A stretch of DNA of 64,000 nt from an uncultured Archangium sp. GTDB taxonomy: Bacteria > Myxococcota > Myxococcia > Myxococcales > Myxococcaceae. Position 1 is the first letter of the stretch. Every line of letters begins with the position of its first letter. The notes under the pieces are model-generated. The model saw only the letters and a list, made by a program, of their open reading frames with translations, did not search any database and had not been told where the DNA came from. This document shows, in pieces, positions 35,050 through 39,198 of this stretch. The translations under genes were made by a program, and so were the position numbers. The stretch lies in NCBI GenBank assembly GCA_903861945.1, contig CAIOWM010000156.1:27198-91197 (forward strand), read 5' to 3'.

Positions 35050-38000
35050 GTGACCGTCGTCGTCGTCGCCGAGAAGCCCTCCGTCGCACGAGACCTGGCC
35101 CGGGTGCTGGGCGCGACCACGCGTGGGGAAGGCTCGCTCTCGGGCAACGGCTACGTGGTCACCTGGGCCATCGGTCACCTGGTCGGCCTCGAAGAACCCG
35201 AGGGCATCGACCCCCGCTGGCGCCGCTGGAGCTTCGACACGCTCCCCATGTTCCCCGGGACGTGGCCCCTGCGCGTCTTCGAGCAGACCCGCGCGCAGTT
35301 CGAGGTGGTGCGCCGGGCCTTGCGCGGGAAGGACGTGAGCGAGGTCATCTGCGCCACCGACGCCGGGCGCGAAGGCGAGCTCATCTTCCGCTTCATCTAC
35401 GAGGCCGCGGAGTGCCGCAGGCCGGTGAAGCGGCTGTGGATCTCCTCGCTGACCGACGGCGCCATTCGCGATGGGTTCGACAGGCTGCGCCCCCAGCGGG
35501 ACTTCGATGGCCTCGCCGCCGCCGCCCTGGGTCGCAGCCGCGCCGACTGGTTGGTGGGCATGAACCTCTCGCGGGCCTACGGGCTGGCGCTCGACTCGCA
35601 GCTCTCGGTGGGCCGCGTGCAGACCCCGACCCTGGCGCTCATCGTCGAGCGCGAGCTCGCCATTCGCGACTTCAAGCCCGAGGACTACCTCGAGGTGGTG
35701 GCCACGTTCTCCCCGCGCGACGGGGCGAGCTACCCGGGCACCTGGCACCGCGAAGGTCCCGGCGAGCACCCGCGGCGCCTGCCCGCGTCGGGTGAGGAGG
35801 CGCAGGCCATCGTCGCGCGCGCGAAGTCGGGGAAGGCGAAGATTGCCTCCGTCACCTCGAAGCAGAAGAAGCTCCCCGCGCCGCTGCTCTACGACCTGAC
35901 CGAGCTGCAGCGACACACCAACCGGCTCTACGGCTACTCGGCCCAGCGCACCCTCGAGCTGGCCCAGGCGCTGTACGAGCAACACAAGCTGATCAGCTAC
36001 CCGCGCACCGACAGCCGGCACCTCTCGGCGGACGTGGCGGCCACGCTGGGGCCCATCGTCAAGGCCATCCGGGGGCCGTTCGAGGCGCAGCTCGCCCCGG
36101 GGACTGGCGAACGGCCGCTGGGGAAACGCTTCGTCGACGACGCGCAGGTCTCGGATCACCACGCCATCATCCCCACCGCCATCGCGGCCGGTGCGCGCTC
36201 GCTGAGCGCCGATGAACGCCGGGTGTACGAGCTCATCTGCCGCCGGTTGCTGCAGGCCTGGCATGACGACTTCACCTGGGCCGCGACCGAGGTGGTGACC
36301 GAGGTGACCACCCCTTCCGTGGTGGACCGGTACCGCAGCCACGGCACGGCCATCGAGCAGGAAGGCTGGAAGGTGCTCGACGTCGGGCCGGTGAAGGCAC
36401 CGTCCGAGAAGAAGCGCGCGCCGGGGGAAGAGGCCGACGACGAGGGGATGCTGCCCTCGGGGCTCGAGCGCGGGCAGCCCCAGCAGGTGCTCGAGGCGAA
36501 GGCGGTGCCCAAGCGCACCAGGCCTCCCGCGCGGCTCAACGACGCCACCCTGCTCACCGCCATGGAGACCGCCGGCAAGACCCTCGATGAACGCGAACTG
36601 TCAGAGGCGATGAAGGAGAACGGCCTGGGCACGCCCGCCACCCGCGCCAACATCATCGAGACGTTGCTCACCCGCGCGTACGTGCAGCGGGAGGGCAAGA
36701 CGCTGGTCGCCACCGACAAGGGCATCGGGCTCATTGAAGTCGTCGATGCCGAGGTGAAGAGCGCGGCCATGACCGGGGGGTGGGAAGCGCGGCTCCAGCG
36801 CATCGCCAAGGGCCAGGGCGAGCTGCCCGAGTTCCTCGCGGGAATTGAGCGGTATGTGGAGTCGGTCATCGGGCGCATCCGCACCACGCCGCCCACGCCC
36901 ATGGGTGGGCCTCCGGGGGCGGGCGGGCGCAGCGCGTATGTCGCGAGTGCGTCGGCGAGGACTGCGGCGAACTCCTCGGCTGCGATGAGCACCGCGGCGT
37001 CACGAGGAACCGCTGCGACGTCGGGAAGTACGGCGGCAGTGTTGGGGCCTGGGCGGCCAGTTCGGCCCCTCACCCCGGCCCTCTCCCCGCTCCCGCAGGG
37101 CGAGGGAGGGACGGCAGTGGTTGCGCCAGGGCGTCCGGTTCGGCCCCTCACCCCGGCCCTCTCCCCGCTCGCGCAGGGCGAGGGAGGGACGGCGACGCAG
37201 ATGCTCTCGCGCTTCGGTCACGCCTCCTTCCGCCCCCACCAGCGCGAGGCCTGCGAGGCCGTCATCGCCGGCAAGGACGTGCTGCTCGTCATGCCCACCG
37301 GCGCCGGCAAGTCGCTGTGCTACCAGCTCCCCGGCCTCGCCCGCGGCGGCACCACCCTCGTCATCAGCCCGCTCATCGCGTTGATGGAAGACCAGGTCAC
37401 CCGGCTCCAGGCCCTGGGCCTGCGCGCCGAGCGCATCCACTCGGGCCGCGCGCGCCTCGAGTCCCGCCGGGTGTGCGCCGACTACCTCGCCGGCACCCTC
37501 GACTACCTCTTCATCGCCCCCGAGCGCCTCGGTGTCCCCGGCTTCCCCGAGCTGCTCGCCAAGCGCACGCCCTCGCTGGTGGCCATCGACGAGGCGCACT
37601 GCATCTCGCAGTGGGGCCACGACTTCCGCCCCGACTACCGGCTGCTCGGCGCCCGCCTGCCCTCGCTGCGCCCCGCCCCGGTGATGGCCCTGACCGCCAC
37701 CGCCACCCCGCGCGTGCAGCAGGACATCGTCGCCCAGCTGAGCCTCGGCACCTCCAGCAAGCAGTTCATCCACGGCTTCCGGCGCCACAACCTCGCCATC
37801 GAGGCCCTCGAGGTGCTGCCCAGGGAGCGGGCCGAGCGCACCCTGGAGTGGCTGCTGCGCAAGGGCCGGCTGCCGGCCATCGTCTACGCCGCCACGCGCA
37901 AGACCGCCGAGGCCACCGCCGACCTGCTCTCCAGCCGCATGCGCGCCGCGCCGTACCACGCGGGCCTCTCCACCGAGGAGCGCGACTCGACCCAGACCGC

Positions 38001-39198
38001 GTTCCTCTCCGGCAAGCTCGACGTGGTGGTGGCCACGGTGGCCTTCGGCATGGGCGTCGACAAGGCCGACGTGCGGACCGTCATCCACCTCGCCCTGCCC
38101 GGCAGCGTCGAGGGCTACTACCAGGAGATCGGCCGCGCCGGCCGCGACGGCCAGCCCTCGCGCGCGGTGCTGATGCACCACTTCGTCGACCGCAAGACGC
38201 ACGAGTTCTTCCTCGAGCGCGACTACCCCGACGCCGCGGTGCTCGCCAAGTTGGCCCGGGCGCTGGACGACACGCCGCAAGACGCCGAGGCCCTGCGCCG
38301 CCGCACGCGCGTGAAGGTCGACGACTTCGAGAAGGCCCTGGAGAAGTTGTGGATCCACGGCGGCGTGGGTGGCGTCACCGAAGACCAGCTGATCAAGGGC
38401 CACGACGCGTGGCAGGCGCCCTACGAGGCCCAGCGCGCGCAGCGGGTCGAGCAGCTCGCGCTCATGGGCCGCTTCGCCGAGGGGCACCGCTGCCGCATGT
38501 TGTCGCTGGTGCAGCACTTCGGCGACCAGGCCGACTCCGGGGAAACGTGTGGCCTGTGCGACGTGTGCGCGCCCACCGCGTGCATCGCCGCGCTCTTCGA
38601 GGCGCCCACGTCAGCCGAGCTGGGGGTGATGTCCGAGCTCCTCGCGCGCCTGGCCGCGAGCCCCGGCCAGGCCAGCGGCCGGCTGTGTCGCGAGGTGCTG
38701 GGCGAGGCCCCCGAGGCGCGGCCGAAGTTCGAGCGCCTGGTGGGTGGACTGGTGCGCGCGGGGCAGCTGCGCGTGGAAGAAGACTCGTTCGAGAAGGATG
38801 GCAAGCGCATCCCCTTTCACCGGCTGTACGTGGTGGGGAAGGCCGACCCGCAGCGCGCGCGGCTGACGCCGACGAGCCGCCCCGCGCCCGAGCGCAGCAC
38901 CCGCGGCGCGGCCCCGAAGAAGAAGCGCCGCGCGCGAAGGGAATCGAGCCTGCCCGCAGTCGAGCTGCCCTCGAGCGGGGCGAACGCCGGGCTGGTGGAG
39001 CGGCTGCGCGCCTGGCGCCTCGAAGAGTCGCGGCGACGGCGGGTGCCGGCCTTCCGCGTGCTCACCAACCGCGCCCTGGTGGCCGTGGCCGAGGCGAGGC
39101 CCACCACTGCCCAGGCGCTGCGCGCGGTGCAGGGGCTGGGGCCCAAGGTGGTGAAGGACTCGGGCGCGGAGCTCATCGCCCTGTGTGCGCGAGGCTGA
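35050..39198 (+). CDS. topB-recQ: Fused DNA topoisomerase III (type IA) and ATP-dependent DNA helicase RecQ in a single 1382-aa ORF
   Basis: Residues 1-~610 carry TOPRIM (MTVVVVAEKPSVARDLARVLG), the topoisomerase IA core with the active-site Tyr context (LISYPRTDSRHLS), and the GRVQTPTLALIVERE motif. Residues ~720-1382 are a complete RecQ. The helicase motifs include VMPTGAGKSLCYQLP and DEAHCISQWGHDFRPDY. The RQC Zn-binding cysteines are CRMLSLVQHFGDQADSGETCGLCDVC. An HRDC domain sits at the C-terminus. No stop codon separates the two in frame. An internal ATG at 37201 would give a stand-alone RecQ. Confidence 0.8.
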   Translation: MTVVVVAEKPSVARDLARVLGATTRGEGSLSGNGYVVTWAIGHLVGLEEPEGIDPRWRRWSFDTLPMFPGTWPLRVFEQTRAQFEVVRRALRGKDVSEVICATDAGREGELIFRFIYEAAECRRPVKRLWISSLTDGAIRDGFDRLRPQRDFDGLAAAALGRSRADWLVGMNLSRAYGLALDSQLSVGRVQTPTLALIVERELAIRDFKPEDYLEVVATFSPRDGASYPGTWHREGPGEHPRRLPASGEEAQAIVARAKSGKAKIASVTSKQKKLPAPLLYDLTELQRHTNRLYGYSAQRTLELAQALYEQHKLISYPRTDSRHLSADVAATLGPIVKAIRGPFEAQLAPGTGERPLGKRFVDDAQVSDHHAIIPTAIAAGARSLSADERRVYELICRRLLQAWHDDFTWAATEVVTEVTTPSVVDRYRSHGTAIEQEGWKVLDVGPVKAPSEKKRAPGEEADDEGMLPSGLERGQPQQVLEAKAVPKRTRPPARLNDATLLTAMETAGKTLDERELSEAMKENGLGTPATRANIIETLLTRAYVQREGKTLVATDKGIGLIEVVDAEVKSAAMTGGWEARLQRIAKGQGELPEFLAGIERYVESVIGRIRTTPPTPMGGPPGAGGRSAYVASASARTAANSSAAMSTAASRGTAATSGSTAAVLGPGRPVRPLTPALSPLPQGEGGTAVVAPGRPVRPLTPALSPLAQGEGGTATQMLSRFGHASFRPHQREACEAVIAGKDVLLVMPTGAGKSLCYQLPGLARGGTTLVISPLIALMEDQVTRLQALGLRAERIHSGRARLESRRVCADYLAGTLDYLFIAPERLGVPGFPELLAKRTPSLVAIDEAHCISQWGHDFRPDYRLLGARLPSLRPAPVMALTATATPRVQQDIVAQLSLGTSSKQFIHGFRRHNLAIEALEVLPRERAERTLEWLLRKGRLPAIVYAATRKTAEATADLLSSRMRAAPYHAGLSTEERDSTQTAFLSGKLDVVVATVAFGMGVDKADVRTVIHLALPGSVEGYYQEIGRAGRDGQPSRAVLMHHFVDRKTHEFFLERDYPDAAVLAKLARALDDTPQDAEALRRRTRVKVDDFEKALEKLWIHGGVGGVTEDQLIKGHDAWQAPYEAQRAQRVEQLALMGRFAEGHRCRMLSLVQHFGDQADSGETCGLCDVCAPTACIAALFEAPTSAELGVMSELLARLAASPGQASGRLCREVLGEAPEARPKFERLVGGLVRAGQLRVEEDSFEKDGKRIPFHRLYVVGKADPQRARLTPTSRPAPERSTRGAAPKKKRRARRESSLPAVELPSSGANAGLVERLRAWRLEESRRRRVPAFRVLTNRALVAVAEARPTTAQALRAVQGLGPKVVKDSGAELIALCARG
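37057..37212 (+). repeat. Perfect 78-bp in-frame tandem duplication in the TopoIII-RecQ linker (26 aa: GRPVRPLTPALSPL(P/A)QGEGGTA..)
   Basis: 'ccagttcggcccctcaccccggccctctccccgctcccgcagggcgagggagggacggcagtggttgcgccagggcgt' is followed directly by 'ccggttcggcccctcaccccggccctctccccgctcgcgcagggcgagggagggacggcgacgcag'. The unit contains an imperfect palindrome: ccctctcccc...gggcgagggaggg. Confidence 0.85.

Follow-up and report, generated by a model that had tools for sequence, protein, structure and literature searches.

A single-chain topoisomerase III–RecQ fusion, apparently old and conserved, encoded in the genome of an uncultured Archangium

A 64,000-nt stretch of the genome of an uncultured Archangium sp. 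(contig CAIOWM010000156.1), hereafter called the window, carries a topB-recQ fusion as a single uninterrupted open reading frame (ORF) at 35050..39198 on the forward strand, which starts with a GTG codon preceded 5 nt upstream by a GAAGGG Shine-Dalgarno-like motif. The encoded protein of 1382 residues consists of a topoisomerase III (Topo III) catalytic core (residues 1–611), a low-complexity linker of about 107 residues and a full RecQ with helicase, Zn site, predicted winged helix and HRDC. Such a single frame had been proposed in an initial annotation as a Rosetta-stone-type fusion of a known partnership, and both the frame and its interpretation were supported by the analyses described here. 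The G+C content of the window is about 71% and long stop-free frames are therefore common there, so that an ORF by itself is weak proof of a gene; the fusion ORF with its domain matches is far beyond chance even at this G+C content. Analysis of GC content by codon position gave one coding frame across both halves, with values of 0.86–1.00 at the third position (GC3) and of about 0.5 at the second (GC2). No second type IA topoisomerase or RecQ was found in the window. Related loci and homologous proteins are denoted below by L- and P-numbers, respectively.

In the ENA assembly ERZ1426838 the identical protein was found on two contigs, called as a single gene and with its neighbours unchanged. 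When 5.8 billion clustered proteins were searched and the best 120 clusters at 90% identity were taken, all of these were fusions of 1240–1600 residues, 61–82% identical to the query, with named members belonging to Myxococcales, Archangium, Myxococcus or Polyangiaceae and with database labels reading merely 'DNA topoisomerase 3' or 'RecQ family helicase'. In an alignment of the query with these 120 (the 121-sequence alignment) both enzymatic halves were conserved, with block identities mostly of 0.6–0.95, and both appear on that evidence to be intact and under purifying selection. A taxonomic scan, using one genome per species with tblastn and a check for ORF continuity, gave uninterrupted fusions in Myxococcota and in five lineages of Acidobacteriota (from Bryobacterales, Solibacteraceae, Terriglobia and Thermoanaerobaculia), and also in a metagenome-assembled genome (MAG) of Oligoflexus (46% identity) and in a MAG of an 'uncultured proteobacterium' (42% identity). 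Finally, query residues 151–1350 were searched exhaustively against 1.84 billion representatives at 50% identity, whereupon 56 of the best 150 examined were found to contain both halves, in every one in the order Topo to RecQ; 32 of the 56 were near-complete, with gaps of 16–248 residues between the halves and identities to the query down to about 30–40%. This distribution points to a genuine, old and conserved gene, and to neither an assembly error nor a recent read-through. The rarity implied by the initial annotation was overstated, as the identical protein is already public as one gene and members of the family customarily bear the annotation 'DNA topoisomerase 3'. The fusion is already abundant in public databases under such generic names and is apparently uncharacterised; no description of a Topo III–RecQ fusion was found in the full-text literature searched, including PMC2647321, PMC2504306 and PMC8185306, with subscription-only literature outside the scope of that search.

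It was also considered that a stop codon or frameshift might have been missed in the linker, or that this one genome carries a pseudo-fusion, with topB and recQ truly being two genes. An artefact of that kind would fit with the high G+C content that makes stop-free frames common, with a linker repeat that could mis-assemble and with frame changes in three related MAG loci, which are described further below. It is contradicted by the same architecture in 120 of the 120 best clusters, from many independent assemblies and three phyla, by the identical protein called on two public contigs, and by both halves lying in one frame with strong GC3 periodicity, in which the linker repeat of 2 × 26 codons preserves the frame. 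Nor is there a conserved start ahead of RecQ, Met718 being unique to the query with Leu at that position in 117 of the 121 sequences. We consider the artefact to be effectively refuted and exceedingly improbable.

The Topo half scored above the NCBIfam cut-offs for NF005829 'DNA topoisomerase 3' (660.3 versus 597 bits) and TIGR01056 topB (572.3 versus 515.75 bits), and aligned end to end with residues 4–639 of the 653 residues of E. coli Topo III. In that alignment Tyr317 lies opposite the catalytic Tyr328 of the E. coli enzyme, and both Y317 and R319 are invariant in the 121 fusion sequences; the two motifs quoted in the initial annotation, GRVQTPTLAL and LISYPRTDSRHLS, were both found in this half. 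The Toprim residue Glu8 is kept in 120 of the 121 sequences and 'ATDAGREGE' is nearly invariant. The latter differs from the 'GDPDREGQ' of E. coli, with the second Asp of the E. coli DPDRE being Gly here, and is a subfamily trait, as it is identical in Listeria TopB. The decatenation loop of E. coli Topo III, which we take to be residues 502–519 or thereabouts, aligns to a region of the fusion with a single one-residue gap, and the block of residues 501–540 has an identity of about 0.9 within the family. The subfamily is that of the Firmicute-like TopB (NF005829), the nearest among stand-alone enzymes, Listeria TopB being 38% identical to the Topo half; alignment to this 717-residue protein stops at residue 584, with the linker and RecQ occupying the place of its tail of about 130 residues. 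In the Topo half, the C-terminal DNA-binding tail or Zn-ribbon region known from stand-alone TopB has been lost; this region is accessory and lies outside the catalytic core. With regards to thresholds, TOPRIM acidic residues, the Tyr/Arg pair and the decatenation-loop region the half has the features expected of a Topo III, the tail excepted, and the description of a 'complete' Topo III consequently holds for the catalytic core but not for the C-terminal tail seen in Listeria. A phylogenomic review from 2009 listed bacterial Topo III only for Proteobacteria, Firmicutes and Bacteroides.

The RecQ half scored above the family cut-off (TIGR00614 recQ_fam, 377.9 versus 219.8 bits) but below those of the E. 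coli-type equivalogs (TIGR01389, 461.4 versus 640.2 bits; NF008279, 358.3 versus 1015 bits), and is a RecQ-family member other than the E. coli orthologue type. It aligned with residues 10–344 of E. coli RecQ (core) and then, past an insertion, with residues 366–405 (Zn segment). K754, the DEAH box, the motif VI Arg and the four cysteines C1148, C1167, C1170 and C1173 are invariant in the 121 sequences, and the Zn subdomain (PF16124, 32.3 versus 25 bits) and HRDC (PF00570, 64.1 versus 23.8 bits) both exceeded their Pfam cut-offs, in agreement with the helicase motifs, Zn-binding cysteines and HRDC originally assigned. The RQC part was also claimed, and of this the Zn cysteines were confirmed, whereas the Pfam RQC winged-helix model gave no match in the fusion protein and a winged helix was seen only in a structure model. 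That AlphaFold2 model, which covers residues 718–1382 (the RecQ half only) and was built on 59 sequences, had a mean predicted local distance difference test score (pLDDT) of 86 and contained two RecA-like lobes, a helical module, the Zn subdomain, a winged helix and the HRDC bundle. The predicted winged helix, at residues 1188–1261, has three helices and a beta-hairpin at a pLDDT of about 85–97, and Foldseek aligned the model over 506–545 columns with the RecQ catalytic cores 4TMU and 1OYW, and also with BLM including its HRDC. On the strength of this model, the RecQ half is predicted to carry a winged-helix (RQC) domain.

The RecQ half further contains a helical insertion of about 56–65 residues ahead of the Zn site, which is missing from E. 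coli RecQ (1OYW) and is kept across the homologues without gaps and with a block identity of 0.52–0.67, its helices being confidently modelled. The basic stretch at residues 1283–1302, with a pLDDT below 50, is variable among homologues. Four Polyangiaceae-type fusions (P0046, P0073, P0088 and P0105) have only 42–50 residues from the Zn site to HRDC, as compared to about 118–145 elsewhere, and apparently form a subgroup without the RecQ winged helix, in which the domain would have been lost. The coordinates of all features are collected in Table 1.

Table 1. Features of the topB-recQ fusion gene, with positions in the window unless a related locus is named.
Feature	Position	Strand	Details and evidence
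Whole topB-recQ fusion ORF	35050..39198	+	1382 aa; GC3 periodicity; identical product in ENA assembly ERZ1426838
TOPRIM domain, residues 4–133, with Glu8 and 'ATDAGREGE' (D104, E108)	35059..35448	+	Pfam PF01751 (Toprim, 4–133)
Type IA topoisomerase core, residues 153–596, including the stretch that aligns with the E. coli decatenation loop	35506..36837	+	Pfam PF01131 (Topoisom_bac, 153–596), E=8e-105
Catalytic Tyr317 codon	35998–36000	+	Alignment to E. coli Topo III
Low-complexity linker, residues 612–717, probably disordered	36883..37200	+	121-sequence alignment; composition
Imperfect tandem duplication, two in-frame units of 78 nt or 26 codons	37034..37189	+	Copies 91% identical
REP-like element, copy 1 (GCCCCTCACCCCGGCCCTCTCCCCGC...GGGAG), translated RPLTPALSPLPQGEGG	37065..37108	+	Consensus alignment score 70
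REP-like element, copy 2	37143..37186	+	Consensus alignment score 70
RecQ helicase core, residues 720–1055: motif 0, Walker A Lys754, DEAH 847–850, motif VI	37207..38214	+	Pfam DEAD (728–891) and Helicase_C (937–1034)
Helical insertion, residues 1062–1117, between helicase core and Zn site	38233..38400	+	Gap in 1OYW alignment; model residues 345–400
RecQ Zn-binding subdomain, residues 1125–1173 (Cys1148, 1167, 1170, 1173)	38422..38568	+	Pfam PF16124 (RecQ_Zn_bind, 1125–1173)
Predicted winged-helix domain, residues 1188–1261	38611..38832	+	Structure prediction only; model residues 471–544
Basic disordered stretch, residues 1283–1302 (...APKKKRRARRESS...)	38896..38955	+	pLDDT < 50; model residues 566–585
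HRDC domain, residues 1314–1378	38989..39183	+	Pfam PF00570 (HRDC, 1314–1378), E=1e-17; helical bundle in model
Copies of the REP-like element at other loci	L001 12010–12050, L001 9860–9992, L003 13560–13600, L084–L163		Dispersed element

The linker (residues 612–718, about 107 residues) had been described as some 110 residues of low complexity and as evolutionarily fluid, which was borne out on each count. It is nearly unalignable, with block identities of 0.05–0.18 and 43–66% gaps in the 121-sequence alignment, and its length was 33–303 residues (median 97) in the 120 homologues, down to 16 residues among the representatives at 50% identity and short (25–99 residues) outside Myxococcota, differing even among members of one 90%-identity cluster. 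Ala, Pro, Ser, Arg, Gly and Thr are abundant in it, and in many lineages it carries tandem repeats peculiar to that lineage. Such a long, disordered and protease-accessible linker, together with an ATG (Met718, 37201–37203) exactly at the RecQ N terminus and the existence of stand-alone RecQs of the same clade that function without a Topo domain, could suggest that one ORF here gives two proteins, with linker cleavage or an internal RecQ start yielding the separate enzymes in a fixed ratio. The internal start was rejected as a candidate, since Met718 was found only in the query sequence (1 of 121) and any Met within the 25 residues before RecQ in only 6 of 121. Linkers of merely 16–25 residues also exist, and for co-expression the strict frame and the Topo-to-RecQ order maintained over three phyla would be needless, as an operon such as that of Listeria, described below, would suffice. 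A scan of 34700–39500 gave no promoter- or terminator-like signals, within the ORF or around it, which is weak evidence for this phylum. We find separate products unlikely.

The tandem duplication in the linker, originally reported as perfect, was found to consist of two copies (37034–37111 and 37112–37189) sharing only 71 of 78 bases, and the GC3 coding signature is lost in the repeat block at 37000–37149 (GC3 0.68, GC2 0.76). Each copy contains an element resembling a repetitive extragenic palindrome (REP), which is a GC-rich and near-perfect palindrome of about 45–50 nt with the consensus GCCCCTCACCCCRGCCCTCTCCCCGC-loop-GCGGGGAGAGGG. Both window copies scored 70 against the consensus of metagenomic copies, where the background averaged 20.7 and did not exceed 34. 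At least 120 stretches of metagenomic sequence contained an exact 26-mer of the element, among them five contigs from a single sample, and the element occurs in both orientations, sometimes as inverted pairs; intergenic copies were seen in L001, 20 nt past the stop codon of its fusion gene, and in L003, flanked by two genes. None of 99 scorable element sites had the same coding frame on both flanks, as against 165 of the 600 sites drawn at random from those contigs; the test was rough and conservative, and the in-frame site of the window itself was not scored as 'same frame', its left flank being low-complexity linker. The element is thus normally non-coding, dispersed and REP-like. With the REP palindromes and bacterial interspersed mosaic elements (BIMEs) it shares being short, GC-rich, dispersed in both orientations and located outside continuous coding frames, but it belongs to a sequence family other than that of the E. 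coli REPs, and the window copies differ in lying inside a coding region, in frame and tandemly duplicated with a degenerated stem. No further copies were found in the window, even with relaxed patterns. A functional mRNA hairpin at the repeat was considered and rejected, as the fold did not surpass shuffled sequence in stability (z = +0.96), and the stem has degenerated here.

The element was also seen in the linkers of other fusions. The 62-residue linker of the closest homologue has two copies, one per orientation, read in another frame, and the linker peptides 'HPNPLPxGEGE' and 'LSPRGERVGVR' in several homologues resemble 'LTPALSPLPQGEGG' in the query. Homologue P0004 shares the same linker start, 'IRTTPPTPMGG', without the element, which indicates that the element was inserted into an already existing linker. 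The repeat in the window is hence a REP-like element that was taken up in frame and duplicated secondarily within a pre-existing linker, rather than the remnant of a topB-recQ spacer, and such captures have recurred in several fusion homologues, in different frames and orientations. The earlier proposal, in which read-through of a former topB-recQ spacer gave rise to the linker and the duplication served as evidence, was left unsupported, since the fusion is old and widespread and the repeat is a dispersed element evidently captured later.

The gene order of unfused pairs is also at odds with read-through, as the only adjacent pair found, in Listeria, runs from recQ to topB, opposite to the fusion. 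In this Listeria monocytogenes locus (L204; NZ_LR134400.1, 2968–6917) the two genes share a strand and are separated by 23 nt; the sequence record bears the label 'plasmid 3', yet has 594 kb with the housekeeping genes guaB and pbpD1. A Muribaculaceae MAG (L033, 5995–12609) has topB, recJ and recQ on one strand, with the middle ORF carrying DHH, DHHA1 and RecJ_OB domains. These two arrangements support a functional link between the partners, without supporting the read-through scenario. They resemble the fusion in the genomic linkage of the same partners, and Listeria TopB has a TOPRIM motif identical to that of the fusion, but their ORFs are separate and Listeria TopB retains its C-terminal tail. 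With regards to ancestry, neighbour-joining trees of the Topo half and of the RecQ half gave the same major groups, and one clade, apart from the E. coli-type RecQ, comprised the fused RecQs and also some stand-alone ones, with the fusions at its base. The congruence of the two trees and this basal position would fit with a single old fusion followed by later fissions or partial duplications.

The upstream neighbour of the fusion gene (31985–34990, +) encodes 1001 residues and ends 59 nt ahead of it; its C-terminal part has pentapeptide repeats (PF00805, E=1e-35, residues ~768–986), whereas its first 738 residues gave no Pfam match. Proteins with pentapeptide repeats include mimics of DNA that act on topoisomerases. 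This gene was rejected as a conserved partner: it does lie beside the identical fusion gene in ERZ1426838, yet the relatives of 80% and 76% identity have wholly different neighbourhoods, and it was treated as incidental. Downstream, 39233–40336 and 40361–42661 (+) hold genes for products of 131 and 231 residues without Pfam match and then for a 766-residue CarboxypepD_reg protein, with short gaps and on the same strand.

Topo III homologues were found on thousands of plasmids, mostly conjugative, and on some phages. Some RecQ-like helicases belong to defence systems, and the fusion has a sub-threshold similarity to DpdF (212 bits versus a cut-off of 550), so that a role in a mobile element or in defence, instead of in chromosome maintenance, was also considered. 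Yet the two halves were covered together in none of at least 5000 plasmid records and in none of 93 phage records, and a plasmid or phage origin was rejected. The neighbourhoods of the fusion differ among relatives and include ordinary chromosomal genes, such as those for cytochrome bd oxidase, priA and gyrB, and the trees of both halves agree broadly with taxonomy. A mobile-element or defence role is in our judgement highly improbable.

Among known systems, RecQ with Topo III of E. coli, assisted by SSB, comprises the same two enzyme families with the same expected chemistry, in which the helicase makes single-stranded DNA and the type IA enzyme passes strands. The fusion differs from it in being one polypeptide with a disordered linker, whereby recruitment would be covalent rather than SSB-mediated, in having a RecQ of a separate clade with an insertion, and in having a Firmicute-like and tail-less Topo. 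The eukaryotic dissolvasome (BLM-TOP3A-RMI1-RMI2; Sgs1-Top3-Rmi1) likewise pairs a RecQ-family helicase with Topo III, and in it, as in the fusion, the topoisomerase is joined N-terminally of the helicase core via a largely disordered region, with the BLM N terminus driving the interaction with TopoIIIalpha-RMI1-RMI2 (PMC8832983) and the disordered N terminus of Sgs1 binding Top3/Rmi1 (PMC3905885). In contrast to the dissolvasome, the link in the fusion is covalent and not a peptide-motif interaction, and the protein is bacterial and much smaller.

To our knowledge, reverse gyrase is the only well-known natural fusion of a superfamily 2 (SF2) ATPase with a type IA topoisomerase. It shares with the protein described here the placing of these two activities in one chain, but has the helicase-like module N-terminally and the topoisomerase C-terminally, uses a non-RecQ module with tight interdomain coupling, and occurs in thermophiles only. 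It can be asked whether the fusion is a reverse-gyrase-like machine, in which unwinding combined with a type IA enzyme that relaxes negative supercoils only would give net positive supercoiling, or overwinding, at the expense of ATP in a mesophile. The two ingredients are the same (PMC2647321, PMC8185306), and there is a weak similarity to the reverse gyrase model TIGR01054 through the topoisomerase part. That match reached only 101.3 bits against a cut-off of 471.7 and covered the topoisomerase part only, the domain order is reversed, and the helicase is a bona fide RecQ with predicted winged helix and HRDC; the initial annotation had rightly set the fusion apart from reverse gyrase. Moreover, a hypervariable, flexible linker of 16–303 residues argues against rigid interdomain coupling, and the carriers are soil and freshwater mesophiles, as judged by sample sources. 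A reverse-gyrase-like machine is a slim prospect, though slightly less remote than a mobile or defence function.

We therefore favour as the probable reading a genuine, old and conserved single-chain Topo III–RecQ enzyme, acting as a tethered helicase-topoisomerase that unlinks recombination or replication intermediates. For E. coli, RecQ and Topo III are stated to resolve converging forks and Holliday junctions, in a passage of PMC2647321 citing Suski & Marians 2008, and strand passage by RecQ and Topo III is ascribed to Harmon et al. 1999 where that study is cited in PMC8185306. In the fusion, the RecQ motor would move 3'→5' and unwind or branch-migrate duplex at forks, D-loops and Holliday junctions, to which the predicted winged-helix and HRDC domains would target it. 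This unwinding would expose the single-stranded DNA required by a type IA topoisomerase, whereupon the tethered Topo III, present at high local concentration and in 1:1 stoichiometry, would cut one strand via Tyr317 and pass a strand or duplex through the gate. In this way the enzyme would unlink hemicatenanes, precatenanes, late replication intermediates, converging forks or double Holliday junctions, with no crossover arising. The covalent tether may thereby stand in for the non-covalent recruitment that is provided by SSB in E. coli and by the N-terminal region of the helicase in BLM and Sgs1. The linker would serve as a flexible leash only, and for that reason could accommodate indels, tandem duplications and REP-like palindromes captured in frame, as in the 2 × 78-nt repeat of the window.

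Several points weigh against this reading. The neighbour-joining trees carry no support values, MAG binning can mislead, and the close relatives found all come from MAGs or metagenomes of uncultured organisms. Three loci of one long-read MAG project (L011, L015 and L037) have broken frames, either between the halves or inside them: in L011 the frame changes once, in the linker at 7833–7866 and with no obvious recQ start, whereas L015 and L037 have 4–5 such changes each inside conserved domains. Assembly indels are the simplest reading of these breaks and probably explain them, but they could also represent pseudogenes or, for L011, a natural fission. Furthermore, stand-alone RecQs of the fused-RecQ clade exist in L025 and in L017–L021 and L026, the latter two groups from Acidobacteriaceae, with 49–54% identity over the entire RecQ half and no topB within 6 kb upstream, and the fused state is thus not obligatory for that RecQ type. 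One of them, L025, is found in the same Polyangiaceae MAG (JAVTWR01) as the fusion L007, to which it is nearest in the tree, and this coexistence suggests duplication or fission events. Lacking its tail, the Topo half could be weak in stand-alone activity. Finally, RMI1 matters for dissolution in eukaryotes, and no RMI1-like OB-fold domain was found by Pfam in the ORF or in its immediate neighbours, the rest of the genome lying outside that search.

A stronger version of the proposed enzyme would be a self-sufficient, single-chain 'minimal dissolvasome' that dispenses with an RMI1-like subunit or SSB bridge and would couple branch migration to strand passage in dissolving double Holliday junctions or hemicatenanes, with the tether length of 16–303 residues tuning the coupling; this we regard as a tentative idea that is rather unlikely, though better placed than any of the rival explanations above. 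A more radical sub-case of it would be net ATP-dependent positive supercoiling in a mesophile, by an enzyme whose domains run opposite to those of reverse gyrase.

As far as we know, the cooperation of RecQ with Topo III extends from E. coli to humans, where the two act in the Bloom syndrome complex, and wherever studied they are separate proteins coupled by adaptors (SSB, RMI1/2). Many copies of the fusion are already in public databases, and a fusion of known partners is neither conceptually unexpected nor unique to the source genome. The linker would present a clear bacterial case of a non-coding, normally intergenic palindrome absorbed repeatedly into a protein. As a one-gene system, the fusion may be useful for structural and single-molecule study of helicase-topoisomerase coupling, with a natural series of linker lengths (16–303 residues) and with variants that have or apparently lack the winged helix, and it may offer a route for testing whether bacteria carry out true dissolution. 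For the enzyme family, it would constitute independent evolutionary confirmation that selection favours the proximity of both activities, with the topoisomerase placed N-terminally of the helicase.

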